A stretch of 64,000 bases of DNA from Trueperaceae bacterium (GCA_034520945.1 JAXHNB010000001.1:288001-352000); one strand, 5' to 3'; positions 2,880 to 27,635 are shown, counted from the stretch's first letter. Notes: generated by a model not told the origin, from the letters alone. A program made the numbers and translations.

Positions 2880-4670
2880 CTACCGTGCGACGCCGGTGGG
2901 TTCCGCTTCGGGCTGCAGGTAGGCGAGGACGCCGCCGGCCCGGTACAGCGCCCGGTCGTACGCCGGCGGCGGCGCGGCTTCGAAGGCGTGACCGTCGATC
3001 CAGACGCGGCCCGCGTCCGGGTCCACGCGCACCACGCTGTCGGGTGCGACGCGCTGGAACGCGTCGGGCGCCGCCAGGGTCAGCACGGGCAGCCCTTCGT
3101 CGCGGGCGCCCGCGAGGTAGACCGGCGCCACGCCGCGTGCCACCACGGCCTGCACGCCGGCTGCGCGCAGGGCCCGCACCGAGGAGGCGCGGTTGCTGCC
3201 GACCCCGAACACCCCGTCGGCCAGCACCACCCCGCCGTCCAGCGCGTCCAGCACCTGCGGACGCGCCGATTCGGGCAGGAGGTGGTGGAACAGCAGGCGG
3301 CGCAGCACGGCCGGGTCCCCGTCCGCGCTGGTGCCGACGCCGGGCACCGCCGAGGGCGTCAGGTCGTCGGTGGTGACGGTGCCGTGCAGCAGCAACGCAT
3401 TGCCGTGGCGCGGCCGTTGCAGGCCGGGTCGGGACCGTGATGGCGCACAGGCGCCCGCCTCGGTGCCGCGCCCGCCGGCGCCCGTCGCGCCGAGCCGGCC
3501 CGTGCGGGCCGCCCGGCCCGCCGTCCGTCCCGAGGCCAACAGGATCTCGGCGTCCGCTGCGCCCATGCGGCCCGCCGCGTTGCGGTTGCCGGTCGTGACC
3601 GCTCGGGCGCCGGGGCCCAGACGGCCGGGGCCGAAGCCGAAGCAGGGGCCGCAGCCCGGCGGGAGCACGGTGACGCCGGCGCGCACGAGCCGTGCCAGCA
3701 CGCCGGATTCGTCCAGCCGGCGCGCCACCTCGCGCGAGGCGGGCGCGACCCAGGCCGGCACGCGCGACCTGGGCCCCAGCGCGTCGGCGAAGGCGGCGAT
3801 CTCCTCGACCGTCCCCCCGGAGCACGTCCCCACGAACACCTGGTCCACGCGGTCCCCCGCCAGGTCGTCCAGTGCCACCACGTCGGAGGCGCTTCCGCCC
3901 CGCGCCACCCGGGGCGTGATCCGGTCCAGGTCCAGACGCAACGCGGCGAACGTGCCCGCCTCCCCCGCGGGCGTGGCGGTCCGCGCGTCCGGCGTGAACA
4001 CGGCGGTGATCGCCGTGGCCTCGGGGGCGGCGTTGGCCAGCACCGCCCGCTCCGAGGCGCTCAGCGACCCTACGCCGTCGCCGAAGAACTCCAGCGCGCG
4101 GCCACAGGCGACCGGAAGGCCCGTCCCGTCGTCGCGGAGGCGGGACAGCAGCGTCAACATGGCGTCCCGCGCGCTGACGCCCGGCGCCAGGCGTCCGCGC
4201 AGCTCCACCCCGACGGTGTGCGGCACCACCAGCGGCAGGTGTCCCGTGTGCATGCAGGCGGCGAACGTGGTCGGCTGAGCGGCGAACGCCGCCGCCCCGA
4301 ACGCGCCCAGGGTGGGTGCGTGCGAGTCGTTGCCGACCACCACGTCGCCGGGGCGCACGTAGCCGGCGGCGGGCAGGACGTGGTGCTGGATGCCCTCCCG
4401 CGCCAGCAGGGTGGCGTCGTACGTTCCTACGAACGCATCCCGCTCGTGCAGGAGCCGCACGGCGCGTTCGCGCTCCTCGCCCTGGTAGGTGCCCGGGTCG
4501 TAGGTGTGGTCGTGCACCAGCACCAGCGGACTGGCGGCGCGCGTCGTCCCCAACGCCTGCAGTGGCGCGCGCAAGGCCGGCGTGGTCCAGTCGTCGGTGA
4601 CCAGCAGATCGATGGCGCGCCGCACCGGCGTGCCCGCCGGGGCGCCCAGCAGGCGCTCGATGGCCGTCAC
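2880..4670 (-). CDS. Aconitase-family [4Fe-4S] dehydratase/isomerase, LeuC-like and LeuD-like domains fused
   Basis: Contains HDH, GNDSHAPTLGAFG, GTCSGG, PGCGPC and TTGNRN, followed by LeuD-like TTDDLTP and FGVGSNR. Likely GTG start at 4670 after GGAG; the ORF is open to 4730. Confidence 0.8.
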   Translation of the reverse strand: MTAIERLLGAPAGTPVRRAIDLLVTDDWTTPALRAPLQALGTTRAASPLVLVHDHTYDPGTYQGEERERAVRLLHERDAFVGTYDATLLAREGIQHHVLPAAGYVRPGDVVVGNDSHAPTLGAFGAAAFAAQPTTFAACMHTGHLPLVVPHTVGVELRGRLAPGVSARDAMLTLLSRLRDDGTGLPVACGRALEFFGDGVGSLSASERAVLANAAPEATAITAVFTPDARTATPAGEAGTFAALRLDLDRITPRVARGGSASDVVALDDLAGDRVDQVFVGTCSGGTVEEIAAFADALGPRSRVPAWVAPASREVARRLDESGVLARLVRAGVTVLPPGCGPCFGFGPGRLGPGARAVTTGNRNAAGRMGAADAEILLASGRTAGRAARTGRLGATGAGGRGTEAGACAPSRSRPGLQRPRHGNALLLHGTVTTDDLTPSAVPGVGTSADGDPAVLRRLLFHHLLPESARPQVLDALDGGVVLADGVFGVGSNRASSVRALRAAGVQAVVARGVAPVYLAGARDEGLPVLTLAAPDAFQRVAPDSVVRVDPDAGRVWIDGHAFEAAPPPAYDRALYRAGGVLAYLQPEAEPTGVAR

Positions 4671-4689
4671 GGGTCGCTCCGGGCGCGGA

Positions 4690-5997
4690 TCACGAACGAG
4701 CGCCGGCCTCGAAGCAGTAGCGGGGCGCATCGAAGCGCCGGGCCAGAGCGATCACGTCGTGGCGGACCCGTTCGATGGCGCGGCGGCCGGTGAGCACGTC
4801 GGCGATGGCGCCCGATAGGTCCGCCATTTCGCCCTCGCCCATGCCGAGGCGGGTGATCTCGGGCACGCCCAGGCGCAGGCCCTTTTGCCCGAGGGTGGGG
4901 ATCAGGTTGACGTTGCCGATCAGGTGTGCGTCGTGCAGGCGCTCCACCGCCTCGTCGGGCGGCATCTGCGGCCGCACGTCCAGCCATACCTGGTGCGACG
5001 CCGTGCGCTGGGCGCCGCCCTGTACGGCGAGCCCGTGTCCGGCCAGCCCCTCCGCCAGCGCCCGGGCATTGGCGAGCATCTGCCGCGCGTAGTCGGCGCC
5101 GAACGCCCGCATCTCGGCCAGGGTCACCGCCAGGGCCGCCACGTGATGGAGATGGAAGTTGGAGACGTGACCGGGGAAGATCGTCGCCTCGACCGCCTCC
5201 ATCAGCTCGTCCCGGTCGGTGAGGATCATGCCCTTCTGCGGGCCTGGCAGCGACTTGTGGCAGCTGCCCGACAGCACGTCGGCCCCCTCGCGGAGCGGGT
5301 CCTGAAAGGTGCCGCCCAGGATCAGGCCGAACACCTGGGACGCGTCGTACACGATGATGGTGTCATTGCCCGCCAGCCGGCGCAGCTCCCGCACCGGGTG
5401 GGGGAACAGCACCATCGACGCGTCCAGGTAGATCACGTCCGGCGGTGCCTCGGCGAAGGCGTGCGCGCACGCGCCCAAGTCCACCACCGCGTTCGTGCGG
5501 TCGAAGGGCAGCAGGTGCCGGTCGGCGCCGATGCGGTCGGCCACGCTGCGGGCCGCGAAGTGGCCGCCGTCCTCCATCGCCAGGTGATAGAACACGTCGC
5601 CCGGCCCGACCAGCGCGTCGATCACGATGTTGGTGCAGTTCTCGCCCGACAGTGGGCGTACGTTGGCGTGGCGGACGCCGAACGCCTCGCGCGCCAGGTC
5701 CTTGGCCGACTCCTCCAGCGTGGCCAGGTGCTTGCCGCCGACGTAGCGCCACTGCGGGTTCTGGAACAGGTAGCGGTGCGAGGCGTCGCTGGCCAGCACG
5801 CGCCGGGCCAACGGGCTGAGCACGTTCTCGGTGGGGACCAGGCCGATGCAGTCGCGGCGGTAGGCGTCGTGCTGGTCCACCGCGGCCAGCACGTCCGCCA
5901 GTTGGGGCACGGCATGGTCCGCCTGGGGCGTGGCCGGGGCGTGATGCCGGGCGTGGGGTGGAGCGAGGGGGGTCGAAGAGGTGGGGGGTCGGGTCAT
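4690..5997 (-). CDS. PLP-dependent SHMT-superfamily enzyme, L-threonine transaldolase-like
   Basis: Contains LVPTENVLSP, NVRPLSG, DGGHFA, YDASQ, SCHKSLPGPQKG (PLP Lys) and GLRLG. It lacks the KYAEGY motif of canonical GlyA. Confidence 0.8.
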   Translation of the reverse strand: MTRPPTSSTPLAPPHARHHAPATPQADHAVPQLADVLAAVDQHDAYRRDCIGLVPTENVLSPLARRVLASDASHRYLFQNPQWRYVGGKHLATLEESAKDLAREAFGVRHANVRPLSGENCTNIVIDALVGPGDVFYHLAMEDGGHFAARSVADRIGADRHLLPFDRTNAVVDLGACAHAFAEAPPDVIYLDASMVLFPHPVRELRRLAGNDTIIVYDASQVFGLILGGTFQDPLREGADVLSGSCHKSLPGPQKGMILTDRDELMEAVEATIFPGHVSNFHLHHVAALAVTLAEMRAFGADYARQMLANARALAEGLAGHGLAVQGGAQRTASHQVWLDVRPQMPPDEAVERLHDAHLIGNVNLIPTLGQKGLRLGVPEITRLGMGEGEMADLSGAIADVLTGRRAIERVRHDVIALARRFDAPRYCFEAGARS

Positions 5998-6319
5998 GAC
6001 GGACACCTGCCAGGGGCTGGGGGCGAGACGGTTGCCGTCGGCGGGGTGCCTGGACGGCGTGGCCTTCGGTGCTGGGCCGATGCCGCGCGGGTGCCTTCAT
6101 TCCGAAAGTGGAAGCCGCGCCCGCTCGACACTGGGCCTAAGGAAACCAAAGATTGCGACGAATTGCAAGCGATCCGAAAGCGACCCGGGGCCCGCCGTCA
6201 CCCGAGTCGAGACGCGGCCGAGGGGGCGTGGACGCCCTGGCGCGGGTCCTGCCCGCGCGAGGACGGCCGGGACGTTCGCCCGCCCGCAGGTTCGGTAGGC
6301 TGACCGGCAAGGAGGCCCC

Positions 6320-6657: not shown

Positions 6658-7200
6658 GTGGCGATGCCTGGGCGACCGCTCCGTGCGTTCGCGCATGGAC
6701 TGTGCCGCAGTGCTGTCGCGCTGGCGTGGGGGGTGCTCCTCGCCGCCTGCGCGCCCGGGCCCACCTCGGGGGTGGTCGCCACGGCGCAGGTCGGTGACGC
6801 GGCCGACGGCGCTAGGGAGGGGGTTTCCCCCCGGGCCGAGCTCGTTGCGCTGGCGAACCGGGCCCGTAGCGAACCGCGCGCCTGCGGCGACAGCTGGTTC
6901 GACGCGGCCGAACCGCTGCAGATCGACCCCACCCTGATGGACGTCGCGCAGGCGCACAGCGAGGATCAGCGCGCCTTGGGCGTGGCCACCCACGTCGGGC
7001 CCGAGGGGCGCGGTCCGTCCGGCCGCGTGGAGGACAGCGTGTACGAATGGTCGCGCGTGGGGGAGAACGTGGCCTCGGGGTACGACTCGGCGCAGAGCCT
7101 CGTCCGGGCGGTCCTGGACAGCGAGGGGCATTGCGCCAACCTCATGGACCCGGACTTCCGCCACACCGGCGTGGGCTACTCCGGCGGCTACTGGACGCAG
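6658..7200 (+). pseudogene. CAP/SCP-domain lipoprotein truncated at the duplication junction; reads through to 7653
   Basis: Matches 26946-27488 (lipobox LAAC, GENVA, SEGHCANL). The final VFATPR* is replaced by non-homologous read-through after YWTQ. Confidence 0.8.
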
Positions 7201-7536
7201 CACGACCCCGACCAAGCCCCAGACGAGCCAGTTCGGCCGGGCCCTTGCGCCCTGGCGGCCCGATCCGTGCGGCGTACCCGCCGGCGGGATCTCCACGCCG
7301 CCTGCCGGAACGTCGGGCGTCCGGTCGACCACCGGCGTGCCCGCCACCCAGTGCAGATAGCCCGCGTCGCCCGGCGTCAGCTCGTCGCTCCAGGCGTACG
7401 CGTGGGACTCCTCGACCTCGAAGGTGCGGCCGGTCCGGTCCGAGCGCCACTCCTGTATGTGCGCCCCTCCCTCCGCGGTGCGGTCCGACCGCACGTAGCG
7501 AACCGCCCAGACGTCGGGATCACGTCGCGAACTCAT
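7201..7536 (-). pseudogene. 5' part of a hypothetical membrane protein cut at the junction
   Basis: ATG at 7536 has a TACACT -10 box 6 nt upstream (leaderless pattern). The protein MSSRRDPDVW... ends within the hydrophobic segment NWLVWGLVGVVL, then runs into antisense CAP sequence. Confidence 0.6.
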
Positions 7537-7834
7537 CCCCCGAGTGTAGCGCCGTGCGCGATCCTCGCCGGTCCCTGCGCCAGCCTCGACGACGCGGCCC
7601 ATCACACTAAGACCACCGCCAGCACGCTCGCGCCCGCCTGCCAGGCGATGTAGCGCGCGTGCATGGCATCCAGCGGGTAAAGCGTCCGACATCGCCGCCC
7701 GCCCCCGGTCGTTACCCTACGAAACGTAATTGCACGCCGGCACGCTCCGCGCTCATCGGTCGACCATCGAGGCGCCCGAGGCCCACCCGGGCCCCATGCC
7801 GTGCCGCGTGCCCCTCGGAAGGGAGGAGTTTTCC

Positions 7835-9214
7835 ATGACGCTCGCATCCATGCGAACGACCCGCATCCCAACTCTCCGCCTCCTCGCAGCCCTACTGCTG
7901 AGCGTGGCGGTGACCGGCCTCGCCCACGCCCAGCAAGGGGGCGAGTCCGAAGACGTCGTCGCCCTCGAGGCCGTGGCCGACGGCTTCAACTCGCCCGTGC
8001 AGCTGGCGTCGCCGCCCGATGACCCGCGCCGCTTCGTGGTCGACCGTGTCGGCGCGATCTACCTGCTGCACGAGGATGGCAGCGTGGCCGACACGCCGTT
8101 CCTGGACCTCCGCGACGAGATCGTCGAGCTGCAGGACGGCTTCGACGAGCGTGGCCTGCTGGGCCTGGCGTTCCACCCCGACTTCAGCGAGAACGGGCGC
8201 TTCTTCGTGTACTACAGCGCTCCGCTGCGGGACGCCGCGCCGGACGACTGGGACCACACCGCCTACGTCTCCGAGTTCAAGACCGCCGAGCCCGAGGAGG
8301 ACGACGCCCCGCGCGGCTCGACCGACACGGCCGACCCGAACACCGAGCGTGTGCTGATGGCCATCGATCAGCCCAACTTCAACCACGACGGCGGCACCCT
8401 GGACTTCGGGCCCGACGGGTACCTCTACATTGGGCTGGGCGACGGCGGCAACGCCGATGACGCCGGCCTTGGACACCAGCCGATGGGCCACGGGCAGGAC
8501 ACCACCTCGCTGCTCGGCAACATCCTGCGGATCGACGTGGACCGCGGCTGGCCCGGCTACGCCGTGCCCGAAGACAACCCGTTCGTGGGTGACCCGACCC
8601 GGCCGAACGAGATCTACTCCTGGGGTTGGCGCAACCCCTGGCGCATGAGCTTCGACGCCGCCGGCAACGGCGACCTGTACGTCGGCACCAACGGGCAGAA
8701 CCTGTGGGAGGCCGTCTACCGCATCCGTGAACCCGGCAACGCCGGCTGGAACATCCTCGAAGGCACGCACTGCTTCGATCCGGACGCCCCGAACACCACG
8801 CCGGCCAGCACGGCCTGCGACACGGTCGGCCCGCAGGGCGAGCCGCTGAAGCTGCCGGTCATCGAGTACCCGCATCCCGGCAACCAAGGCGACTACGAGC
8901 ATGCCGGCATCTCCGTCGTCGGCGGCTACGTCTACCGCGGCGACGACATCCCGGCGCTGCAGGGCCGCTACGTGTTCGGCGACTGGAGCCTCGGCTTCGG
9001 CGAGCCGCAGGGTCAGCTGTTCGTCAGCACGCCGAATGCGTCCCACACCGAGGGCGGCACCTGGGCGCTCGAGCGGTTGGACGTCCTGGACAGCTACATC
9101 CTCGGGTTCGGGCAGGACAGTGAGAACGAGCTGTACGTGCTGACCACGGAGAGCACCGGCCCCACCGGCTCCACCGGCGCCGTGCACAAGCTGGTCCCGG
9201 CGGACGCCGAGTAA
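7835..9214 (+). CDS. Secreted PQQ-dependent soluble sugar dehydrogenase (GSDH beta-propeller)
   Basis: Signal peptide (AHA-Q); ERGLLGLAFHPDF, NHDGGTLDFGPDGYLYIGLGDGG, GWRNPWR and SVVGGYVYRG motifs; GGAGGAG RBS. Confidence 0.88.
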   Translation: MTLASMRTTRIPTLRLLAALLLSVAVTGLAHAQQGGESEDVVALEAVADGFNSPVQLASPPDDPRRFVVDRVGAIYLLHEDGSVADTPFLDLRDEIVELQDGFDERGLLGLAFHPDFSENGRFFVYYSAPLRDAAPDDWDHTAYVSEFKTAEPEEDDAPRGSTDTADPNTERVLMAIDQPNFNHDGGTLDFGPDGYLYIGLGDGGNADDAGLGHQPMGHGQDTTSLLGNILRIDVDRGWPGYAVPEDNPFVGDPTRPNEIYSWGWRNPWRMSFDAAGNGDLYVGTNGQNLWEAVYRIREPGNAGWNILEGTHCFDPDAPNTTPASTACDTVGPQGEPLKLPVIEYPHPGNQGDYEHAGISVVGGYVYRGDDIPALQGRYVFGDWSLGFGEPQGQLFVSTPNASHTEGGTWALERLDVLDSYILGFGQDSENELYVLTTESTGPTGSTGAVHKLVPADAE

Positions 9215-9299
9215 CCCAGCGATCCCGCGTTCGGCACCCCGCCCGCATCTTGCGGCGGGGTGCCGACCTGTCCCGCGACGACGAACGAAAGGACCACGA

Positions 9300-11054
9300 A
9301 TGGACGGATGCACCTTCGCTCGCCTGCGCAGGTGGGGGATCGTGGCTGCGGCCGCGATCCTCGCCTTCGCGGGCGCCCAGTCGCCCCCGAACGTCGAGGC
9401 GGAGCTGGTCGTCGACGGCCTCACCTCCCCCGTGCAGCTGACCGCCCCACCGGATGACCCCCGCCGCTTCGTGGTCGAACAGACCGGTCAGATCCGCATC
9501 CTCCAGGAGGACGGCACCCTGGCGGACACCCCGTTCCTGGATCTCAGCGACCGCATCGTGACGTTGCGCGACGGCTTCGAGGAACGCGGCCTGTTGGGCC
9601 TGGCGTTCCACCCCGAATTCGCGGACAACGGACGGTTCTACGTGCACTACAGCGCGCCGCTCCGGGAGCGCGCGCCCGACGGCTGGGACCACACCGCCCG
9701 CATCAGCGAGTTCCGGGTGCCGGCCGACTCGCCCGAGGAGGCCGACCCGAACTCCGAACGCGTGCTACTCCGCGTCGATCATCCCAACCGCAAGACCAAC
9801 GCCGGCGCGCTGGCGTTCGGGCCCGACGGCTACCTCTACGCCGCGATCGGCGAGGGTGGCGGCGCGCACGGCATCGGCGAGGTCGCCTTCGGGGCGCTGG
9901 AAGTGCCCGAACGCGGCAACGTCTGGGACGCGCTGGCGCAGGACGTGCACACGCCCTACGGCAAGATCCTGCGATTGGACGTGGATCACGGTTGGCCCGG
10001 CTACGCCGTGCCTGAGTCCAACCCGTTCGTCGGCACGCCCGGGATGGACGAGATCTACGCCTGGGGGTTCCGCAACCACTACCGCATGGCGTTCGATCAC
10101 GAGGGTGACGGCGCGCTCTACGTCGCCGCCGTCAGCGAGTCGATCTCGGAAGCGGTGTATCGCGTCGATGGGCCCGGCAACTACGGTTGGCCCATCCGCG
10201 AGGGCACGCATTGTTACGACCGCCAGGCACCGCTCGATCCGCCCGAGGACTGTTCTCGCTATGGGCCCGAGGGGTGGCGCATTCACGATCCCGTGGTGGC
10301 GTACTACAACGTGAACGTCGCCGAGTCCGACATCGACGCCGAGCCGCGCGGCACCGCCGTGGTCGGGGCGCAGGTGTACCGCGGTGACGACATCCCCGAG
10401 CTGCGCGGACGCCTGCTCGTCGCCGACTACTCGCAGAACCCCCAGGAACCGAGCGGCACGGTGTTCGTGGCTGGGCCCGAGGGCGACGTGAGCGCGACCT
10501 GGCCGCTACGGCAGCTCGTGCAGGTCGACGCCCGCGCGCAAGGTCTGGGCGTGGACGTGGAGGGAGAGGCGTACCTGCTGACCCGTGAAGCGTTCGCCCC
10601 CAGCGGCGATACGGGACGCATCTACCGGCTCGTGCCAGCCAGCGACGACGGCGACGAGGCAGGAGCGGGCGCGTCCGATGGGCAGGACGCCGCCTCGGCC
10701 GACGCCGCCGCAGCGGGATTCTCGTTCACCGCCGCCCAGGCTGAGCAGGGCTCGAGCGTCTACGACGAGCAATGCCAGAGCTGCCACGCAGACGACCTTC
10801 GGGCGCAGGGGCCGTTCCCGCCCCTGACCGGTTCCGAATTCTTCGGCTCCTGGGAGGGCCGTCCCGTCAGCGAGATGTACGCCTTCATCCGAGGCAACAT
10901 GCCGCTGGGATCGGCCGGCTCGCTGTCCGATGAAGCGTATGCCGAGGTGATGGCCTACTGGTTGCAACGGCACGGCTACCAGGCCGGCGAGGCGCCCCTT
11001 CCTGGCGACCCCGCCGCCCTGCCGGAGGACGTACCGGTCGAGGACCGCCGTTGA
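9300..11054 (+). CDS. PQQ-dependent sugar dehydrogenase paralog with C-terminal cytochrome c domain
   Basis: Same GSDH motifs, then an Ala/Asp linker, a CQSCH heme motif and a distal NMP methionine. Confidence 0.85.
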   Translation: MDGCTFARLRRWGIVAAAAILAFAGAQSPPNVEAELVVDGLTSPVQLTAPPDDPRRFVVEQTGQIRILQEDGTLADTPFLDLSDRIVTLRDGFEERGLLGLAFHPEFADNGRFYVHYSAPLRERAPDGWDHTARISEFRVPADSPEEADPNSERVLLRVDHPNRKTNAGALAFGPDGYLYAAIGEGGGAHGIGEVAFGALEVPERGNVWDALAQDVHTPYGKILRLDVDHGWPGYAVPESNPFVGTPGMDEIYAWGFRNHYRMAFDHEGDGALYVAAVSESISEAVYRVDGPGNYGWPIREGTHCYDRQAPLDPPEDCSRYGPEGWRIHDPVVAYYNVNVAESDIDAEPRGTAVVGAQVYRGDDIPELRGRLLVADYSQNPQEPSGTVFVAGPEGDVSATWPLRQLVQVDARAQGLGVDVEGEAYLLTREAFAPSGDTGRIYRLVPASDDGDEAGAGASDGQDAASADAAAAGFSFTAAQAEQGSSVYDEQCQSCHADDLRAQGPFPPLTGSEFFGSWEGRPVSEMYAFIRGNMPLGSAGSLSDEAYAEVMAYWLQRHGYQAGEAPLPGDPAALPEDVPVEDRR

Positions 11055-11097
11055 CGCGCCTCGCGCGCCGGCCGTAAGGCCGGGCCGTAGGCGATGC

Positions 11098-11901
11098 CTA
11101 CGGCGTGTCCAGCACCGTCACGTCGTCCCCCACGCGCAGCGTCCCCACCCCGTCGTGCAGCAGGTTCTGCCCGAACAGGACGTTGCCGCCGCGCTTGCGG
11201 GTCCGGTTCAGCGTCCGCAGCGGTTCCGGCCCCGCCTCCAGCGTGTCGGGATGCAGGGTCGGGACCACGCAGCGTGCGCAGGGCTTGGCGACCCGGAACG
11301 CCACCTCGCCGATCCGGATTCGGGTCCAGCCGTCCTCCGCGTAGGGGGCCGCGCCCGACGCCACCAGGTTGGGGCGAAAGCGCACCATCTCCAGCGGCGC
11401 GTCCAGCTGGCGGTTCAGCTCGTCCAACGAGGCGCTGCCGATCAGGTGGAACGGATAGCCGTCCGCGAAGGCGACCCGGTCGTCCGCGTGGGCGTAGGCG
11501 GGGTCGACCCGGCGCGCGCCGTCCGGCGGGAAGACCACCAGTCGGTGCCCCTCGCCCAACACCCGGCCGATCCATTCGTCTGCGCTTCGGCCGCACGACC
11601 AGGCCGTCACGGGGTCGTTCCACACGGTCACGGCGACCTCGCGTGCCGGCGTGGGCGGGCGCGGCAGGTCCAAGTCCGGCAGGCCCGGCGCGGACAATCG
11701 CAGTTGCTCGGCATGAAGCGTGGGCGTGATGCGGCCCAGGCGGGGGTCCTCGCGTTGGCTGCGAAAGCGGCCGCGTCGGTCCACTACCATCCAGCGCCGG
11801 TCGTCCCGTAGGCCGGTGCGCACCACCTCCGCCGCGTTCAGCGGTACGGCGCGCCCCGACTTCAGCGGGTAGGCGTACAGGGCGCTCAGCCGCACCGTCA
11901 C
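11098..11901 (-). CDS. MOSC-domain molybdoprotein (YcbX/mARC-like)
   Basis: Contains YPLKSG, DRRWMVVD, FADGYP, RFRPNLV, PCARC and FGQN. Probable GTG start 5 nt after the pncB stop. Confidence 0.88.
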   Translation of the reverse strand: MTVRLSALYAYPLKSGRAVPLNAAEVVRTGLRDDRRWMVVDRRGRFRSQREDPRLGRITPTLHAEQLRLSAPGLPDLDLPRPPTPAREVAVTVWNDPVTAWSCGRSADEWIGRVLGEGHRLVVFPPDGARRVDPAYAHADDRVAFADGYPFHLIGSASLDELNRQLDAPLEMVRFRPNLVASGAAPYAEDGWTRIRIGEVAFRVAKPCARCVVPTLHPDTLEAGPEPLRTLNRTRKRGGNVLFGQNLLHDGVGTLRVGDDVTVLDTP

Positions 11902-11906
11902 CGCGT

Positions 11907-13475
11907 TCAGCCGGCCGACGCGGCTGCGTCGGCGTTGGTGCGCCGGACGGTCTCGTCGCGCAGGCGCGCCAGCGCGGGCGAGAGCGAGACGTGGTAGCGG
12001 TGCGGGCGCAGGATGCGGCGCACGCCGGGGTAGTGCCGCGCCAGGTCGTTGCGGCACCGCTCGCGCAGCGTCTCCAGCGGCGCCTCGGCCGCGGTGCGGG
12101 CGCCGTCCTGGAAAGCGGGGCTCAGCAACGGTTCGACATCGGAGACGTCGCTGCGCGCGAGGGTGCGGGTGGTGTCGACCTCGCGGGGGTGATGGGCCAC
12201 CAGGTCGTCGCCGCCGCGGCGGGGGTCCTCGCCTGCGAGGGTGACCAGGTCGACGGTGGCGTTTCCGAGGGCGTCGTACACGCGCCACACGCGCTTGTCG
12301 CCCGGCACCAGCGCCTTCGACGGCGTCTCGGACAGCTTGACGGCCGGCAGCCAGCCGTCATCGCCGCGGATCTGCACCAGCTTGTATACGCCGTCCAGGG
12401 CGGCGTCGCCTTCGGAGGTGATCAGGCGGGTCCCGACGCCGTACGCCAGGCGGGAGAGCAGCCGGCCCGCGTCGACGCCGTACGCGCTGGCCTCCTCCGT
12501 GATCTGCGTGCGGATCTGCCACAGGGTGAACTCGTCCAGCTCGTTGGACAGCACGATGGCGGCGTCCTCGAAGCCGGCGTCGTTCAGCTGGCGGGCCGAC
12601 TGGATCGCCAGGTGCGCCAGGTCGCCCGAGTCCAGCCGCACGCCGATGGGTTCGTGCCCCCGTTGGCGCAGGCGTTCGAAGGTCCGGATCGCGTTGGGGA
12701 TGCCGGAGTCGAGCGTGTCGACGGTATCGACCAGCAGTAGGCAGTCGTCTGGGAACGCCTCGGCGTAGGCGTCGAAGGCGCCGGCCTCGCCCATGCCGAG
12801 CGCCATGAACGCCTGCACCATCGAGTGCGCGTGCGTGCCGGCCGGGCGCGTGCCCAACGCGAACGCCAGGCCCGTGTTCGAGGTGGCGTCGGCCCCGCCG
12901 ATCAGGGCGGCGCGCGAGCCGGCGTGGACGCCGCGCTCGTGCCCGCGCCGCATGCCGAAGTCGATCACGGCGCCGCCGTGCGCCGCTTGCACCAGCCGCG
13001 CCGCCTTCGTCGCGATCAGGGTGGGGTAGTTGAGGTGGTTCAGCAGCGACGTCTCCAGCAGCTGCAGCCCCGCCAGCGGGCCCCGCACGATCGCGATGGG
13101 GGCGCCGGCGTGCACCACGCGCCCCTCCGGCACGGCGGTGACGGTGACGTCCGCCCCGGCGGGGCGGTCCTGCAGCCACGCCAGGAAGTCGTCGTCGAAC
13201 AGGCGCCGCCCGCTACGGCCCGTCACGGCGCGCAGATACGCCAGGTCGCGGCGTTCGAAGCGCGTCCCCTCCAGCCACTCCAGGAACCAGGCCAGCCCGG
13301 CCGTGACGGCGTAGCCGGCCTGATGCCCGCCGTAGTCCGGGTAGGAGCGGAAGAAGTACTCGAACTGGGCCGGGCGCTCGTGCATGCCCTTCCGGAAGTA
13401 CAGCTGGGCCATGGTGAGTTGGTACATGTCGGTGAACAGCGCGCCTTGCGCGGTCCGCCAGTCGGTCTCGTTCAT
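11907..13475 (-). CDS. pncB: Nicotinate phosphoribosyltransferase
   Basis: Contains LFTDMYQLTM, DFGMRR, GTHAHS, LLVDTVDT, VRLDSGDL and GVYKLV. Its start overlaps the nadD stop (ATGA). Confidence 0.93.
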   Translation of the reverse strand: MNETDWRTAQGALFTDMYQLTMAQLYFRKGMHERPAQFEYFFRSYPDYGGHQAGYAVTAGLAWFLEWLEGTRFERRDLAYLRAVTGRSGRRLFDDDFLAWLQDRPAGADVTVTAVPEGRVVHAGAPIAIVRGPLAGLQLLETSLLNHLNYPTLIATKAARLVQAAHGGAVIDFGMRRGHERGVHAGSRAALIGGADATSNTGLAFALGTRPAGTHAHSMVQAFMALGMGEAGAFDAYAEAFPDDCLLLVDTVDTLDSGIPNAIRTFERLRQRGHEPIGVRLDSGDLAHLAIQSARQLNDAGFEDAAIVLSNELDEFTLWQIRTQITEEASAYGVDAGRLLSRLAYGVGTRLITSEGDAALDGVYKLVQIRGDDGWLPAVKLSETPSKALVPGDKRVWRVYDALGNATVDLVTLAGEDPRRGGDDLVAHHPREVDTTRTLARSDVSDVEPLLSPAFQDGARTAAEAPLETLRERCRNDLARHYPGVRRILRPHRYHVSLSPALARLRDETVRRTNADAAASAG

Positions 13476-14068
13476 GATCCCTCCGGGGGGTCGTGGCGCG
13501 CGTACAGCCCGTGCGTGTGCAGGTAGGCCGCCACGGCGTCGGGCACGAGGTAGCGAAGGCTCCGGCCGGCCGCGACGCGGCTGCGGACCAGCGTGCCCGA
13601 CACGCCGAACGGCACGGTCTCGATCTTGGTCGCCGCCCGCGCGAACCGTTCGGGCGGGGGCGGCGCCTCCGTGCCGCGCCGGGGAAACACCACCATCTGG
13701 ACGGCTCGGATGAGCGCCTCGGCGCGGTGCCACGTCTCGATCTCGGCCCAGGCGTCGGCCCCGATCAGGTAGGCGAAGGTCGCTTCGGGGTGGCGTTCCT
13801 GCAGGTCCACCACCGTGTCGTACGCGTAGGACGGGCCGCTGCGCCGGATCTCGTCGGCGCGGGCGCGGAACGCCGGGTGGTCCTGTACCGCCAGGCGGGT
13901 CATCTCGAGCCGGTCGAGCGGCGAGGCGTCGGCGGGCTTGTGCGGCGGGTCGCCGGCCGGCAGGAACCACACCTCGTCCAACGGCAGTGCCTCGCGCGCC
14001 TGCTCCGCCATCAGCAGGTGTCCCATGTGCGGCGGGTCGAAGCGCCCCCCGAACAGCCCGACGCGCAT
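13472..14068 (-). CDS. nadD: Nicotinate-nucleotide adenylyltransferase
   Basis: Contains GLFGGRFDPPHMGH (HxGH), PPHK, GPSY, LIGAD and VSGTLVR. TGATG overlap with the nadE stop. Confidence 0.92.
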   Translation of the reverse strand: MRVGLFGGRFDPPHMGHLLMAEQAREALPLDEVWFLPAGDPPHKPADASPLDRLEMTRLAVQDHPAFRARADEIRRSGPSYAYDTVVDLQERHPEATFAYLIGADAWAEIETWHRAEALIRAVQMVVFPRRGTEAPPPPERFARAATKIETVPFGVSGTLVRSRVAAGRSLRYLVPDAVAAYLHTHGLYARHDPPEGS

Positions 14069-16217
14069 CAGGCGTCTCCGCCGGGCACGTCGGGGACGGC
14101 CGGCCCGCCGTCTCGCGTCGGCGCGCCCTCGAGGTCGCGCACGCGAGCACGGATGGCGCGGAACTGCCACGACCAGGAGGGATCGATCAGGAACGGCCGC
14201 AGGTCGAAGCGGTGGTCCTCCGGGGCGTACGCCTCGGCGTGATAGGCAGGCGTCGACACGGTGGTCTTGTGGCGGTGCGTGGCGTAGGCGCGGAAGAAGC
14301 GCTCGACCTTGTCGGCCACGCGTGAGGGGGGTGTGTCGGTCCAGGTCACGGCCAGGCGCTCGAACGCCTCCAGTGGGCCGTAGCGCTCGATCTTGCGGAG
14401 CCGGCCCAGCTCGCCGAGCTCGGCGTAGGTGAGGCCCATCTCGTCCTCGTCGCGCTGCGCCCCCTCGCCGTCCTCCGGGGTCAGCTCCGCGCTGGGGGCC
14501 GCGCCCAGAATGTCGTCCAGCGCCGTGTAGCCCAGCGTGTCGCGCGCCCATGCCAGGAAGCGCCGCAGATCCACCTTCGAGATGCCACCGATCGGGTTCA
14601 GGTCCGCGGACGAGGTGTCGTACTTGGTGAGGTAGCCCGTCAGGGTCTCGTCCACGTTGGCGGTGCCGACCACCAAGCGCGGGCCCCGCACGCCCCGCAG
14701 GCTGGGGACGCGCTGCGCCAGCAGGTAGGACGCCACCAGGCGGCTGCGGGCCTGCAGGTTCTGCAGCGCCAGGTCGTCCGCCCGGCTGCCCCCTTCGCTC
14801 CGGAAGCGGAGGGGGCGTCCGTGCCGGGAGGGGCGATGGTGCCCGACACGTCCGCCAGCGACGCGACGGCGTCGTCCAGCGTCACCTCCAGATGGTCCGC
14901 CCCGATCTGTTCGGCCAATGCGCGGGCCCGCGCGCGGCTGGCGTCGGTCGACACCTTCGTGGCCAGGTACGCGGTCGTGACCAGGCGTCCCGCCAGCGCG
15001 CGCGGATCGTCGGGGGGATCCTCCCCGGCCGCCAGGCCTAGGACCGCCCGCAGGTCATGGATCACACCGCGCCGGCCGGCGGCGACCTCGCGCGCCAGCA
15101 GGCGGCACATCGAGCCCAGGATCGTCGCCACCGCCGCCGAGTCGCTGCCCCCCGACAGCGCCAGGAAGAACCCGCCGGCCCCGCTGCGGCGCAGGTAGTC
15201 CCACAACCAGCAGGCGGGGCCAAGGGCGATCTCCTCCTCGACCCGGTGCGTGTGGAGCGCGCGGGGCGGGGTGGCGGCGCGGTGGCGGGCCGCGTCCACC
15301 AGGCGCAGGCCGGTCCGCACGCGCGGGTAGGGCTCGGCCATCGACGCTTGCCGCATGCGGGTGGCGCGCGCGCCGCGGAGCGAGCGCACCTGGTCCAGGT
15401 CCACCTCGGCAGTGATCACCTCGACGTCGCGCGGCGAGAACTGCGACCCTTGCGCCACCACGCCGCCGTTCACCACGATCATGGCGCCGCCGTCGAAGTA
15501 CAGGCGCCCCCCGTCGCAGCCCTGCTGGTTGGCGTACAGGTACACGCCGCCGAACCCTTCGGTGGCGGCGCGAATGCGGTGCAGCCGGGTCTCGAGCTTG
15601 CGGAGCTCGTGGTGCGACCCGCTGCCGTTCGCGAAGATCTCGACCCCGTCCAGCCCCAGATCGACGTGGGGGGCGTGGGGCGCGTACAGCTCTTCGCAAC
15701 TCTCAGAAGCGACCACCGTGTCGTCGGTGGACACCACCGCGTCGCCGATCGGGACGGTGTCCTGCCCGGTCCGCGCCCGGATGATGGGCGGCAGCGTGAA
15801 CGGCTCGGTGCGGCGCGCGTGCCGCCAGGCGGCGAACCAGCGGCCCTCGCGGTAGTTGCCGTCGTCCGCCAGCTCGCGTTTGGGGCGGACCAGCAGCACC
15901 CGGCGGTCCAACAGGAACACGCGGGCGTTGTAGCGCACCCCGCGGTGCATGAGCGGCATGCCCACGTCGCACAGGATGCCGTCGGTGAGATCGTCCGCCA
16001 GGAGCTCGGCCAGAACCTCGAACGAGTGCCGCACGGTGTCGCGCTCCAGGAAGTGGTCCTCGCAGCCGTAGCCGGGGATCTCGAGTTCCGGCCCCAGCCG
16101 GAAGCGCGCCCCGCGCGCCTTGGCCTCCTCGATCGAGGCGCGGATGCGGGTCAGGTTGCCGCCGAAGTCAAGCGCCCACTGGTCCAGGTTGCAGGTCGCG
16201 ACCGTCGCGACGTTCAC
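14068..16217 (-). CDS. nadE: Glutamine-dependent NAD+ synthetase (eukaryote-like), split by a 1-nt frameshift at ~14811-14815
   Basis: Nitrilase-like E-K-C triad (GPELE, RPKR, SCEE) and an LSGGSDS PP-loop. The C-terminal half is in a second frame (LALQNLQAR, GYLTKYDTSSAD); adding one base to the G5 run at 14811-14815 joins the frames. Confidence 0.9.
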
Positions 16218-16822
16218 GTGCCGCGCGGTTCGAAGCGAAGATCGGCCGCGCGCACCACCTGGCCCAGGTACAGGAAGGTGAGCTGCCGCAGGGTGGCGTG
16301 CAGGTCGAAGTCGCTCAACGCCGAGACGCCGTCCTCGACCAGCGCCACGTCGTACCACCGCAGCGCCGCGGAGGCGGCGGTGTGCTGCACGCAGATGTTG
16401 GCGACCGTGCCCAACACCACCACGTAGTGAACACCCCACACCCGCAGCTGGTGATCCAGTGGGGTGCCGTAGAAGCCGTCGTAGCGGGGCTTTTGCATCA
16501 CCGGCTCCTGCGGTTTGGGGGTGAGCTCCGGCACGATCTCGGCGCCCCACGAGCCGCGGACGGCGTGGCGGGGCCAGACGCGGAACTCCGGATCGTCCTG
16601 CTCGTGCCAGTCCTGGGTGTACGCCACACGGGCGCCGGCCTGGCGGGCGCGGTCCATCACGTCGCGGATCACGGGGACGGTGCTTGCTGCGCTGGGCACG
16701 TGCAGGGCGCCGCCCTCGGCCACGAAGTCGTTCTGCATGTCGACCGTGATCACCGCGGTGCGCTCCGCGGGCAGGCGCAGCCCGTCGCTACGGGGGATGT
16801 CGGGCACCTCGACGTGCGGCAT
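16214..16822 (-). CDS. pncA: Nicotinamidase (isochorismatase-family cysteine hydrolase)
   Basis: Contains VDMQNDF, TQDWH, WPRHAVRGSWGA, KPRYDGF and GTVANICV; GAGGAGG RBS; first gene of the NAD operon. Confidence 0.8.
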   Translation of the reverse strand: MPHVEVPDIPRSDGLRLPAERTAVITVDMQNDFVAEGGALHVPSAASTVPVIRDVMDRARQAGARVAYTQDWHEQDDPEFRVWPRHAVRGSWGAEIVPELTPKPQEPVMQKPRYDGFYGTPLDHQLRVWGVHYVVVLGTVANICVQHTAASAALRWYDVALVEDGVSALSDFDLHATLRQLTFLYLGQVVRAADLRFEPRGT

Positions 16823-16895
16823 GGAAACCTCCTCACACAAAGGGTTCGTTCATTCCCGTCAGGCTACCGCGCGACCGTCCTCCAGCGCGTTTCGC

Positions 16896-17282
16896 TCATC
16901 GCGGCGGCGTGGGCGGGTCGTCCTCGCCCTCGGGCGCGTCGAAGTCGCCGTCGGTGCGATCGTACTTCCCCTTCAGCTCGTCGATGCCGGTGCGTTCCCA
17001 TAGCGACACGCCGTCGTAGTAGGCGGCGCGGCCCAGCACGTGGGCGGCCACCGGCGCCGTCAGCAGCAGGAACAGGAATACCAGCAGCGCCTTGGTGGTG
17101 GTCGCGGTGGCGCCGAACAGTACGGCGGTGGCGGCCAGGATCAGGCCCGCCCCCAGCGTGCCGGCCTTGGTGGTGGCGTGCATGCGCATGAACAGGTCGG
17201 GGAAGCGGACGGCGCCCAGCGCGGAGACCAGCACGAAGAAGGTCCCGAGCACGAGAAGCAGGATGGCCAATGCCTCAGTCAC
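16896..17282 (-). CDS. mrpG: Mrp subunit G
   Basis: Contains RFPDLFMRMHATTKAGTLG and LLTAPVAAH; operon position. Confidence 0.92.
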   Translation of the reverse strand: MTEALAILLLVLGTFFVLVSALGAVRFPDLFMRMHATTKAGTLGAGLILAATAVLFGATATTTKALLVFLFLLLTAPVAAHVLGRAAYYDGVSLWERTGIDELKGKYDRTDGDFDAPEGEDDPPTPPR

Positions 17283-17574
17283 GGTCGGACCTCTGTCGCT
17301 CGATGAAGCGCGCGAACGCGATCGTGCCCAGGAAGGAGATAAGCGCCAGCGCGATGGCGGCGTCCAACAGCACGGCGGTCCGCGTGGCGATGGCGACCAG
17401 GGCGATGACCGACACCGCCATCAGGCCGATCATGTCCAGCGCCATCACGCGGTCGGGCAGGCTGGGACCGCGGATCACGCGGTAGAGGGCCAGCGCGATC
17501 GACACCGCGACGCCCGTCAACGCCAGGTAGGCCGTCACGTCCAGCAGGGCGAAGGACGGGTCGAACAGGATCAC
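17275..17574 (-). CDS. mrpF: Mrp subunit F
   Basis: Contains RVIRGPSLPDRVMALD and FLGTIAFARF. Confidence 0.92.
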   Translation of the reverse strand: MILFDPSFALLDVTAYLALTGVAVSIALALYRVIRGPSLPDRVMALDMIGLMAVSVIALVAIATRTAVLLDAAIALALISFLGTIAFARFIERQRSDRD

Positions 17575-18044
17575 CGGAACACCTCCAGGATGCGGCGTTC
17601 GAAGCTCGACTTGATGTCACGCACCAACCGCTCCGGGTCGTCCGCGAACATGGCGTGTACGTAGAGGCAGCTCTTGTCCGCGGCCACGTCGATCGAGAGG
17701 GTGCCGGGCGTGAGCGAGATCAGGTTGGCCAGCAGCGTGATCTGCGCGTCGGTGGTCAGGTCCAGCGGGACCGCGATCACGGCCGGCTGAGCACGCAGGC
17801 GCGGGCGGAGCACGTCCACCGCGACGCGCACGCTGGACAGGGCCAACTCGCGCAGGAAGAACAGGAACAGGCCCACGACCCGCACGAAGCGCACGGCGTA
17901 GCGCCGGTCGCCCAGCGCCCCGCCGACGAAGTGCAGGACCACCATGCCGACCCCGAAGCCGATCACGAGGTTCACCTCGGACAGCGATCCGGTGGCGAAC
18001 GCCCACATGAACGCCAGCACCAGGTTCAGGCCGAACAGGCTCAT
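17571..18044 (-). CDS. mrpE: Mrp subunit E
   Basis: Contains LLANLISLTPGTL and LYVHAM; ATGA overlap with the mrpD stop. Confidence 0.92.
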   Translation of the reverse strand: MSLFGLNLVLAFMWAFATGSLSEVNLVIGFGVGMVVLHFVGGALGDRRYAVRFVRVVGLFLFFLRELALSSVRVAVDVLRPRLRAQPAVIAVPLDLTTDAQITLLANLISLTPGTLSIDVAADKSCLYVHAMFADDPERLVRDIKSSFERRILEVFR

Positions 18045-19552: not shown

Positions 19553-19956
19553 GGCCACGTCGCGTCCTCGTCCTCTTCGGGTTCGTCCAGGCCCGGCACC
19601 GGCCGTGGGTCGGCCATGCGTTCCGCCATGCGTTCGGTCTTGACCGTGCCGAGCCGTTCGTAGGTCCGCAGCAGCAGCACCAGCGTGAACACGGTGAGTC
19701 CGAAGCTGATCACGATCGCGGTGAGGATCAATGCCTGCGGCAGCGCGTTGGCGGCCCCGTCCGGGGGGACGGACGCGCCTGCGGGCACCAACGGCGGCAC
19801 CTCTTTTGTCAGGCGGCCCAGCACGAAGATCGCGACGTTCACCGAGCCGGACATCAGGATGAGCCCGAACACGAAGCGCAGCATGTTGCGTTGCATCACC
19901 AGGTACAGGCCGGAGGCGAAGAGCGCCCCGACCACGATCGCGACGGGGACCTCCAT
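19549..19956 (-). CDS. mrpC: Mrp subunit C
   Basis: Contains LPQALILTAIVISFG. Confidence 0.92.
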   Translation of the reverse strand: MEVPVAIVVGALFASGLYLVMQRNMLRFVFGLILMSGSVNVAIFVLGRLTKEVPPLVPAGASVPPDGAANALPQALILTAIVISFGLTVFTLVLLLRTYERLGTVKTERMAERMADPRPVPGLDEPEEDEDATWP

Positions 19957-20366
19957 CAGTGTTCCTCCAACGCGAACAACATGGTGAGCACCACCCCGAT
20001 CACCACCAGGTACACCCCGACGTCGAACAACAGCGGCGTGCTGAGTTTGATCTCCAGCGCACCCAAATCGCGGATCCACCATAGGCCGGTAAGGAACTCC
20101 TGGCCCGCCAGGGCGGCCAACAGGCCCGCTCCCGCGGCGGCGGAGAGGCCCACGCCGATCACGATCTGGGGCTTCACCCGCAGCAGTTCCGCGGCCGCCC
20201 GGGCACCGTCCGAGATGGCGTATAGGGCGAGCGCCGCCCCTGCCACGAGCCCGCCGATGAACCCGCCGCCCGGCAGGTCGTGCCCACGCAGCAGCAGGAA
20301 CACCGACAACAACAGCAGCACCGTGATCAGCAGGCGGGTGGTCGTCCGGAGGATCACGCTGTTCAT
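19956..20366 (-). CDS. mrpB: Mrp subunit B
   Basis: Contains [14 protein letters not shown] and [12 protein letters not shown]. Confidence 0.92.
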
Positions 20367-22824: not shown

Positions 22825-23168
22825 GGCGGCACCCCGGTCGCCTCCCGGGGGGCACGCGGCGGTGCGCCGGCGGGCCTGCGGGCGTCAGGGGGAACGGTCG
22901 TACGGGCCACGGCGGGTCCGTGCGGCCTGCTCATCGATCATGCCTCCTCGGCGCCGGCCCAGGGGGCGGCTGGGTGCGAACATCGGGACGCGAACGCGGA
23001 TCGATCCGAAGCGGCCCAGGGCCGACCGCGGACCGCGTCCGCCCTGCGGGCGGCGGTTCCGCGCGCGTGCGTGACGCCGATTGTATACCGGGGGCGCGTC
23101 CCCCTGGGCATCCCGCCCGGCATGCGGTCGGCACGGGCGGCGTCTGGCGGCCGTCCGTGCGGGCGCCG

Positions 23169-24959: not shown

Positions 24960-24978
24960 GGGTCGCTCCGGGCGCGGA

Positions 24979-26925: not shown

Positions 26926-26945
26926 AGCAGGGGCGCGCCCTGGGG

Positions 26946-27509: not shown

Positions 27510-27635
27510 CGCACGTGCGGGTCGAAGCCCGTCGCTCGCGGCGTCGGCGCCGGGACACGTTCGAATGGGACGTTCGTCACACCATGCCCCCCGCCAAGGA
27601 TGTGCTAGGCTACGTCACATAGAGGGGCCCCAGGT

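Follow-up and report, generated by a model that had tools for sequence, protein, structure and literature searches.

Gene Organization of the Operon

In this study, we report the analysis of a two-gene operon from a Trueperaceae bacterium (GCA_034520945.1, JAXHNB010000001.1:288001-352000), located in a stretch of 64,000 nucleotides which is referred to here as the window. Its first gene encodes an enzyme with the fold of serine hydroxymethyltransferase (SHMT), dependent on pyridoxal 5'-phosphate (PLP), and its second gene a predicted single-chain aconitase of the isopropylmalate isomerase (IPMI) and homoaconitase (HACN) type. The pair is a translationally coupled and co-inherited accessory operon, present in a minority of Trueperaceae, and it joins two known folds, each of them a subfamily without prior description, in a strictly conserved pairing that has likewise not been described.

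The annotation of the operon is provided in Table 1. The guanine plus cytosine content at third codon positions (GC3) is of coding type in both open reading frames (ORFs), with values of 0.93 for the SHMT-like gene and 0.92 for the aconitase gene. GTG 4670, the probable start of the aconitase gene, lies 6 nt after a GGAG sequence and 19 nt after the stop codon of the SHMT-like gene, and it is also the start in the database and Atlas gene calls. For the SHMT-like gene, GTG 5910 is preferred because the database gene call is of 406 aa; the sole indel between the two copies of the operon in this gene's stretch (1 nt at 5967) is located 5' of that codon. In the 14 loci that have both genes complete, these either overlap or are separated by no more than about 20 nt. 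An original prediction, made from the sequence alone, had described a two-gene operon. Adjacency and coupling of the genes stand, while the second copy had been missed; both genes likely start later than their longest ORFs. All the motifs it had quoted (HRYLFQNPQW, GGHFA, DASQ, HKSLPGPQKG, DDWT, DSHAP, and GSNR) were found in the ORFs. No riboswitch was detected 5' of the operon, either in the Rfam scan of the whole window at gathering thresholds or in the E-value scan of positions 5950-6350. The consensus promoter scan gave 0 sites and the terminator scan was also empty.

Table 1. Features of the operon and of its second copy, with positions counted from the first nucleotide of the window.
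Feature	Position	Strand	Remarks
SHMT-fold PLP enzyme, Glu-less branch	4690..6006	(-)	Longest ORF 438 aa; probable start GTG 5910, giving 406 aa
Predicted single-chain IPMI/homoaconitase-type [4Fe-4S] hydro-lyase	2880..4730	(-)	Longest ORF 616 aa; probable start GTG 4670, giving 596 aa
Gene junction	4668..4692	(-)	SHMT-like stop TGA 4692-4690, GGAG 4680-4677, aconitase GTG 4670-4668; read from the sequence
LeuC-like part, domains 1-3, residues 32-413	3492..4637	(-)	NCBIfam LeuC/HacA large-subunit models, archaeal type
Variable Gly/Ala/Arg-rich linker, about residues 414-475	3306..3491	(-)	Length-variable and unconserved in the alignment; pLDDT below 50 at 418-426
LeuD-like swivel domain, residues 476-606	2913..3305	(-)	NCBIfam LeuD/HacB small-subunit models
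Non-coding region 5' of the operon	6007..6319	(-)	No riboswitch or promoter-like site in the scans
Second operon copy	23169..26388	(-)	Aconitase 23169-25019; SHMT-like ORF 24979-26388

The SHMT-Like Protein

The SHMT-like protein was recognized by the Pfam SHMT model (PF00464) with 124.6 bits. Every NCBIfam match of this protein and of the aconitase remained below its curated cut-off. For the SHMT-like protein the scores were 270.3 for PRK00011 (cut-off 335), 99 for PRK13580 (cut-off 735), and 240.2 for TIGR04506, the model of fluorothreonine transaldolase (FTase; cut-off 650), in which only positions 6-409 of the 609-position model were matched. Its relatives are annotated at source as glycine hydroxymethyltransferase. 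A search of 5.8 billion proteins returned 47 cluster representatives with identities of 59-72% and scores of 552-623 bits, the first match outside this group being at 318 bits and 43% identity. Similarly, among 1.84 billion representatives clustered at 50% identity there were one full-length member (576 bits) and two partial sequences, and the next full-length match had 302 bits and 39-44% identity. The SHMT-like protein is therefore an isolated sequence family of its own, with next relatives that are at most 44% identical.

The protein carries HRYLFQNPQWRYVGG, GGHFAA, YDASQ, and HKSLPGPQKG, and the motifs HRYLFQNP.WRYVGG, LSGENCTN, GGHFAA, D[AG]SQ, and HKS[LF]PGPQKG are invariant or near-invariant in the family. 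The absence of the glutamate of the GlyA motif KYAEGY, replaced by HRYLFQNPQW, was confirmed. In all 18 family rows the acid-base Glu site is occupied by a phenylalanine (Phe81), which is aligned with the Glu of HRYAEG/KYAEGY in the SHMT of Methanocaldococcus jannaschii, in the genome's own GlyA, and in archaeal SHMTs. According to excerpts of PMC11323337, this acid-base Glu (Glu53/57/75) is conserved in all SHMTs, and its change to Gln nearly abolishes catalysis dependent on tetrahydrofolate (THF). Given the Phe in its place, transfer of one-carbon units to folate or methanopterin is most likely not a reaction of this enzyme. Also as predicted, Gln stands for the histidine of DxxH, the family motif being D[AG]SQ. 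The PLP lysine K251, the pyridine-binding D221, the stacking histidine H149, and the carboxylate-binding R378 are kept and invariant in the family. They align by motif with K234, D204, H131, and R366 of ObiH, an L-threonine transaldolase (TTA), residues that are given as catalytic or PLP-stabilizing in excerpts of PMC10495429.

The AlphaFold2 model of the protein had a predicted local distance difference test (pLDDT) score of 82.6, and its top folds were M. jannaschii SHMT and ObiH, both with a template modeling (TM) score of 0.83. FTase of Streptomyces cattleya and ObiH of Pseudomonas fluorescens (PDB 7K34) share with the family the motifs GGHF and GPQKG, the catalytic His, Asp, Lys, and Arg, and an SHMT fold from which the acid-base Glu is missing. 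ObiH is about 30% identical to the family and has a longer loop 1, whereas loop 1 of the family is short and invariant (YLFQNPQWRYVGG). The C-terminal class II aldolase domain of FTase is lacking in the family. Other differences from the TTAs are the Gln in place of the DxxH His and the partner, which is an aconitase and not an antibiotic cluster. M. jannaschii SHMT (PDB 4UQV/4BHD) is 35-36% identical (238 bits), with the same length and PLP-site residues; however, between it and the family Glu is changed to Phe, GGHISH to GGHFAA, DGAH to DASQ, PQGG to PQKG, and NKN to NVN.

Phylogenetic Placement

Two trees were built. The first contained 151 rows, drawn from the 150 best representatives (kept if of 370-470 aa) and supplemented with ten family members, named relatives, GlyA of the same genome, FTase, the clavam OrfA of Streptomyces clavuligerus, and a plasmid gene of Bacillus cereus. 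ObiH and LipK were absent from both trees. In the 151-row tree the family fell in a clade of 81 rows (Shimodaira-Hasegawa-like approximate likelihood ratio test, 99) which included S. cattleya FTase and in which 80 rows had no Glu. In the bootstrapped tree of 50 rows the family had a support of 100/100 and was placed within a clade of 27 rows (100/98), none of them with Glu. This clade holds S. cattleya FTase and S. clavuligerus OrfA, and the 16 Glu-bearing rows all lie outside it. An approximately unbiased (AU) test on the 50-row set, for a grouping chosen once the first tree was known, showed that forcing the family together with the archaeal SHMT trio was 123.5 log-likelihood units worse (p-AU 4.8e-6), so that the archaeal SHMT clade is excluded. 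Nesting within THF-dependent SHMT clades was thus not seen, and the family belongs instead to the Glu-less clade with FTase, although it is not the sister of FTase in the trees. The likeness to the transaldolase branch that had been proposed holds in this sense, and ObiH, with its GGHFA and PGPQKG, also has no Glu. The nearest outgroups (P0206-P0210) have DxSQ and PQK as well.

Among distant Glu-less SHMT-like proteins, P0226, P0246, P0337, and P0245 carry an additional domain of the B12-binding radical SAM, ATP-grasp ligase, GFO/IDH/MocA oxidoreductase, or class II aldolase type. Such fusions suggest that the aldol-type PLP enzymes form a large radiation that is still unexplored. No fusion of an SHMT-like protein with an aconitase in one chain was found among the 150 best SHMT-like representatives. 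In S. clavuligerus, the clavam OrfA gene adjoins genes for Rid, an aminotransferase, and a Thr/Ser dehydratase.

The Fused Aconitase

The second protein was matched by the Pfam Aconitase model with 199.9 bits, and by the NCBIfam models PRK00402 (266, cut-off 385), TIGR02086 (253, cut-off 410), and LEUD_arch (51.6, cut-off 109). Because models of LeuC type (residues 32-413) and LeuD type (476-606) match one chain, the protein is a fusion of large and small subunits, as the original prediction had stated together with the three cluster cysteines and the divergent motifs DDWT, DSHAP, and GSNR; the NCBIfam matches and the alignment bear out all these points. Its relatives are annotated at source as homoaconitase/3-isopropylmalate dehydratase. 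Homologs amounted to 53 cluster representatives with identities of 41-89%, followed by a drop to 196 bits and 34%, and a search of the ESM Atlas gave only generic aconitase clusters. The aconitase is likewise an isolated sequence family, its next relatives being no more than 36% identical.

An alignment of 22 rows showed no variation at the cluster cysteines C303, C360, and C363. Across the family and four outgroup fusions the invariant positions are, in addition to these cysteines, D74-H75, D135-S136-H137, N233, E237, N382-R383-N384, R388, T454-D455, S512, and R514. By position, we take these residues to correspond to D100-H101, D165-S166-H167, N258, E262, C358, C421, C424, N446-R447, R452, D568, S642, and R644 of mitochondrial aconitase. 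We also assume that R383, R388, and R514 bind the dicarboxylate backbone in this aconitase family. The roles of the serine base S642 and of the three cysteines of mitochondrial aconitase are described in excerpts of PMC8184944.

In other motifs the family departs from its relatives. Its family-specific motifs GIQHH and, following the first Cys, (A/S)GGT are accompanied by replacements: TDDWTTP where the relatives have (V/S)HD, GSNRAS instead of GSSRE(H/Q)A, APLYAxGARDEG instead of FARIFxRNAxNxG, and TTDDLTPSxVPGVGTSxDxDP in place of the LeuD substrate-recognition loop. Alignment with LeuD of Pyrococcus horikoshii (PDB 1V7L) revealed in that loop a Gly/Ser/Asp-rich insertion of five residues (VPGVGTSxDxDP), the loop being presumably the one that recognizes the substrate in LeuD.

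The best PDB match by sequence was the IPMI large subunit of M. jannaschii (4NQY, 164 bits). The AlphaFold2 model had a pLDDT of 88.8 and a predicted TM score of 0.90, with a disordered linker. Compared as a whole chain with mitochondrial aconitase it gave TMq values of 0.76-0.78; its halves gave TMt values of 0.81-0.83 with the M. jannaschii IPMI and HACN large subunits and of 0.78-0.81 with LeuD small subunits. LeuCD and HacAB (PDB 4NQY, 4KP2, 1V7L, and 2PKP) are the closest matches in sequence and structure for both halves, and they have in common with the protein the cluster Cys, DH, DSH, NRNxxGR, and the serine base. They differ from it in being separate subunits, which are here fused in the order 1-2-3-linker-4, as well as in the altered motifs and the loop insertion, the scores below the cut-offs, and the lack of leuA and leuB beside the gene. 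Given the fold match, the kept catalytic residues, and the changed motifs of the substrate site, the protein looks like a competent [4Fe-4S] hydro-lyase, as predicted from sequence and model, with a new specificity. It was also considered as an aconitase X, and this was rejected since PF04412 gave 16.1 bits against a cut-off of 31.5. Aconitase X belongs to the same superfamily and employs the conserved serine base to dehydrate a beta-hydroxy-alpha-amino acid, according to excerpts of PMC5144071 and PMC8184944. It is nevertheless of a different subfamily, with a Foldseek TM of about 0.4 and the domain order 4-linker-1-2-3.

Linkage and Distribution of the Pair

The aconitase gene was directly 3' of the SHMT-like gene and on the same strand in all 11 loci of species-representative genomes, two of which are cut by a contig end. 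In metagenomes the adjacency was found in 12 of 15 loci, and the other three end at or inside the SHMT-like gene (12/12 testable). Overall, the pairing whose loss would have spoken against the original prediction was kept in every testable locus (23/23). Over 91 pairs from 14 loci, the pairwise identities of the SHMT-like protein correlate with those of the aconitase (r = 0.944), with none of 2000 Mantel permutations giving a value as high, and the aconitase diverges faster (median identity of 54% vs. 67% for the SHMT-like protein). In addition, a contig from an independent sediment study (run X3, record 18) spans the junction, covering positions 4225-5780 with 25 differences.

No conserved third gene was found in 27 loci, the commonest being DegV (5/27) and MoxR (4 to 5/27), with the rest rarer. 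The flanks vary by locus and include DegV, MoxR-type ATPase, ProB, semialdehyde dehydrogenase, ComM, cytochrome oxidase, amine oxidase-like, and GSDH genes. In the window, the neighbors of the pair are genes for an mrp antiporter, NAD salvage, MOSC, two GSDH proteins, and CAP-domain proteins. The survey of these neighbors revealed no leuA, leuB, lys, or nonribosomal peptide synthetase (NRPS) genes near the pair, in agreement with the original prediction, and no leu or lys pathway genes stand beside it in the 26 related loci either.

The named family members come from Trueperaceae, Deinococcaceae, or Deinococcota metagenome-assembled genomes, with the exception of one contig of 49 kb labeled Woesearchaeota, which has both genes. 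Within the GTDB family, the pair is present in 15 of 128 genomes (9/79 of those of high quality). Six of the 36 genera are represented, and of the 11 genomes of the genus to which the window belongs 3 have the pair. A literature search, with subscription journals outside its scope, found no description that links an SHMT-like enzyme or transaldolase with an aconitase or IPMI-type enzyme.

Genome Context

The source genome consists of 3.47 Mb and is 97.4% complete. Separate housekeeping counterparts of both genes are present: a canonical GlyA on contig C6 (Pfam, 520 bits; KYAEGY, GGHLTH, DVAH, and GPRSG) and a canonical leuC-leuD-leuB row on contig C5. There are also AcnA on C6 and a further single-chain gene of the aconitase family on C8. 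Three roles that the genome might have suggested for the pair were rejected. Replacement of a Ser/Thr dehydratase was ruled out since the usual Ser/Thr dehydratases are present. The pair was not retained as filling a gap in glyoxylate assimilation, as the genome has no malate synthase, no true isocitrate lyase, no gcl, and no glcD of equivalog level, and a comparison of malate synthase within genera, given below, was uninformative. Supply of iminoaspartate for NAD synthesis, an idea that came from the nearby pncB-nadE-pncA genes, fails because NadA is absent from the genome; moreover, the nadB model scored 360 (cut-off 453) and the NAD genes are not conserved beside the pair.

The absence of NadA also means that NAD is probably obtained by salvage only. 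The corresponding cluster in the window (11907-16840, minus strand) encodes NAPRTase, a nicotinamidase-type isochorismatase, and an NAD synthetase dependent on glutamine. The last of these is split into two overlapping ORFs, 14640-16550 (CN_hydrolase) and 14068-14736 (NAD_synthase), which could reflect a frameshift or a sequencing error.

Tandem Duplication and Other Features of the Window

The operon is present twice in the assembly because a block of 20,287 bp is repeated head to tail with 99.48% identity (99 mismatches, 6 gaps), at -13084..7200 and 7206..27488; the block extends beyond the window, to -13084 on contig C1. Between the operon copies there are 20 differing alignment columns in 23148-26256, of which 18 fall in 24048-24374, inside the aconitase gene. 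The 105 differing columns between the block copies are clustered, with 52 of them in positions 20000-21000 of copy B. The junction at 7200/7206 cuts the CAP-domain gene, giving a chimeric ORF (6658-7653) vs. the intact gene at 26946-27509. Among the listed contigs of the probable source sample (X1 and X2), which stop at 7176 and restart at 7199, none bridges these positions, and for this reason the junction has no independent confirmation. One loose contig end reads like the single-copy flank after 27488. The 20.3-kb tandem duplication may be real, or it may be an assembly artifact.

An ORF of 105 aa (6320-6637, plus strand; GC3 0.90), divergent from the operon, has no Pfam match and is not kept beside the pair elsewhere. 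Two tandem paralogous genes for glucose/sorbosone dehydrogenase (GSDH; 7730-11054, plus strand) have internal stretches that are 72-78% identical, and the second one carries a C-terminal cytochrome c domain. Finally, an aptamer of a cyclic di-GMP-II riboswitch was identified at 27632-27716 on the plus strand (67 bits, gathering threshold 53.5), followed by a T-run and located 5' of a second gene for a CAP-domain secreted protein (27782-28390, plus strand).

Discussion

Proposed Chemistry

Gene structure, conservation, linkage, phylogenetic placement, and residue status were observed in this study, and from them we infer all the chemistry that is proposed here. Aldol chemistry without folate would allow the SHMT-like enzyme to make or cleave a beta-hydroxy-alpha-amino acid; a glycyl-quinonoid formed from glycine or L-threonine would add to an aldehyde, as in FTase and ObiH. 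The chemistry expected of the aconitase is an anti-elimination of water, in which the unique iron would be bound by the hydroxyl and usually also by a carboxylate of the carbon that bears it, and the serine would take the neighboring proton. The strict coupling of the two genes suggests that the second enzyme acts on the product of the first, as the simplest use of both chemistries. The aconitase would then dehydrate the beta-hydroxy amino acid to an enamine/imine, and hydrolysis of this compound would yield a 2-oxo acid and ammonia. We give an even chance to this general form, that is, a folate-independent aldol step whose product, a beta-hydroxy amino acid, is then dehydrated by the Fe-S enzyme. 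The stand-alone module of aldol reaction plus dehydration that the original prediction had outlined is supported, in our judgment, by the trees, the motifs, the pairing, and the separate housekeeping genes, with its chemistry as a proposal.

Precedents exist for each half of this aldol-then-dehydration idea: aconitase X, which dehydrates the beta-hydroxy amino acid cis-3-hydroxy-L-proline (excerpts of PMC5144071 and PMC8184944), and the clavam OrfA, an SHMT-like gene next to a Thr/Ser dehydratase gene, where dehydration would come after the aldol step.

The metabolite that we favor, tentatively and as a rather doubtful assignment, is 3-hydroxyaspartate (3-aminomalate), which would be formed from glycine and glyoxylate. 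It is preferred as the simplest beta-hydroxy amino acid with a hydroxy-carboxylate pair of the sort chelated by aconitase-type clusters, and because, of the simple aldehydes, only glyoxylate gives both the malate-type dicarboxylate and the hydroxy-carboxylate chelate of IPMI-type substrates. The kept carboxylate-binding Arg residues and the acidic gains (D48 and the Asp-rich loop), which could face an ammonium group, point in the same direction as an argument and not as evidence. The net reaction would be glycine + glyoxylate to oxaloacetate + NH4+. In the beta-hydroxyaspartate pathway, BhcC (aldolase) and BhcB (dehydratase) convert glycine and glyoxylate through 3-hydroxyaspartate into iminosuccinate/oxaloacetate, and both are PLP enzymes of other folds. 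The pair might thus be a non-homologous counterpart of these two steps; there is no homology with the Bhc enzymes, the possible analogy is functional only, and no bhcA- or bhcD-like gene stands beside the pair. That the two enzymes form a self-contained new route, with the PLP enzyme of transaldolase type and the Fe-S enzyme of IPMI type turning glycine and glyoxylate (or another aldehyde) into a 2-oxo acid by way of a beta-hydroxy amino acid, is in our opinion rather improbable as a full description.

Several observations weigh against the proposed chemistry. We know of no IPMI-type aconitase that acts on an amino-substituted substrate, and the changes in the aconitase pocket (D48, N513, and the acidic loop) fit an ammonium group only by argument. 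The vicinity of the pair holds no substrate clue, with no riboswitch and no conserved transporter, regulator, or pathway gene. The closest solved sequence of the SHMT-like protein is a true SHMT (M. jannaschii, 238 bits) over ObiH (180 bits), and Foldseek does not separate an SHMT-like from a TTA-like fold for this protein. The loss of the Glu need not leave the aldolase activity intact, because this residue has also been proposed as the base of the folate-independent retro-aldol reaction (in excerpts of PMC11323337); yet TTAs work without it. With respect to glyoxylate, the genome has neither malate synthase nor gcl; for isocitrate lyase there was a match of 39.8 bits only, which is no real one, and glcD reached 130 against an equivalog cut-off of 568. 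Within the six genera that have the pair, malate synthase was present in 1 of 15 pair-bearing and 3 of 46 pair-less genomes, with no difference between them (the count of 35/128 behind this comparison includes G090, flagged as unpublished). Lastly, the genome encodes an Fe-S serine dehydratase (SdaA-type) and four PLP-type Thr/Ser dehydratase-like genes, so there is no obvious gap for the pair to fill.

Alternative Explanations

The same two-step logic may apply to a mono-carboxylic amino acid, such as Ser made from formaldehyde (giving pyruvate), Thr made from acetaldehyde (giving 2-oxobutyrate), or the product of a larger aldehyde, with the aconitase acting as aconitase X does on 3-hydroxyproline. 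This differs from the explanation given above in the substrate only and overlaps its general form. The lack of any sign of glyoxylate metabolism in the genome is in its favor, as are the mono-carboxylic beta-hydroxy amino acid dehydrated by aconitase X (excerpts of PMC5144071 and PMC8184944) and the non-carboxylated aldehydes used by known TTAs (excerpts of PMC10495429). However, the protein is of IPMI/HACN type and not an aconitase X, as indicated by its PF04412 score, and SdaA-type and PLP-type Ser/Thr dehydratases already exist in the genome. The arginines R383, R388, and R514, to which we ascribed binding of dicarboxylates, are moreover all kept. We consider such a substrate possible but not probable.

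Alternatively, the two enzymes could serve one pathway through different intermediates, the aconitase being a genuine isomerase that acts on a hydroxy-dicarboxylate (citramalate, D-malate, methylmalate, or the like), with unlinked enzymes connecting it to the amino acid that the SHMT-like enzyme makes or cleaves. All characterized IPMI/HACN-type enzymes isomerize hydroxy acids according to excerpts of PMC8184944, and among solved large subunits the nearest is that of the M. jannaschii isopropylmalate/citramalate isomerase. Against this, the adjacency in 23 of 23 loci, the tight junctions, and the covarying divergence are what would be expected of consecutive steps or of a complex; no third gene travels with the pair, and neither the LeuD recognition loop nor the GSSRE motif is preserved. 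In attention to these points, we judge this arrangement unlikely.

A step in the biosynthesis of a specialized metabolite, like those of ObiH, LipK, FTase, and the clavam OrfA, would fit with the relatives of the Glu-less clade that reside in antibiotic clusters, with the extra domains fused to other relatives (B12-radical SAM, ATP-grasp ligase, GFO/IDH/MocA, or class II aldolase), and with the patchy distribution of the pair (15/128 genomes). We regard it as quite improbable, given that no NRPS, polyketide synthase, ligase, tailoring, or export gene stands beside the pair in the 27 loci, where the flanks are housekeeping genes that differ between loci.

It is hardly credible that the genes are ordinary paralogs, namely an SHMT that has diverged yet still works with folate or methanopterin and a redundant LeuCD/homoaconitase for leucine or lysine synthesis, as the source annotations and the true SHMT as best PDB match would have it, since the Glu is absent in 18/18 family rows, all NCBIfam matches are below the cut-offs, the tree and the AU test exclude the SHMT clades, canonical glyA and leuCDB are present, and the pocket motifs are changed.

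Significance

The two superfamilies are among those that have been studied very well, yet each of the proteins described here stands alone as a sequence family whose active site has been remodeled, and they are passed on together as a unit. The labels assigned automatically to them, glycine hydroxymethyltransferase and 3-isopropylmalate dehydratase, hide an undescribed function. If the proposed chemistry is true, the aconitase would be the first of the isopropylmalate isomerase type shown to act on an amino-substituted substrate, which would widen the aconitase/IPMI family, and the pair would offer to biocatalysis a compact module of two enzymes for making 2-oxo acids from glycine and an aldehyde. 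The transaldolase-like branch of the SHMTs, so far known mostly from antibiotic pathways, would gain a primary-metabolic member. Likewise, the halophilic Trueperaceae of salt pans and sediments would possess an Fe-S alternative to the PLP dehydratase of the beta-hydroxyaspartate pathway.

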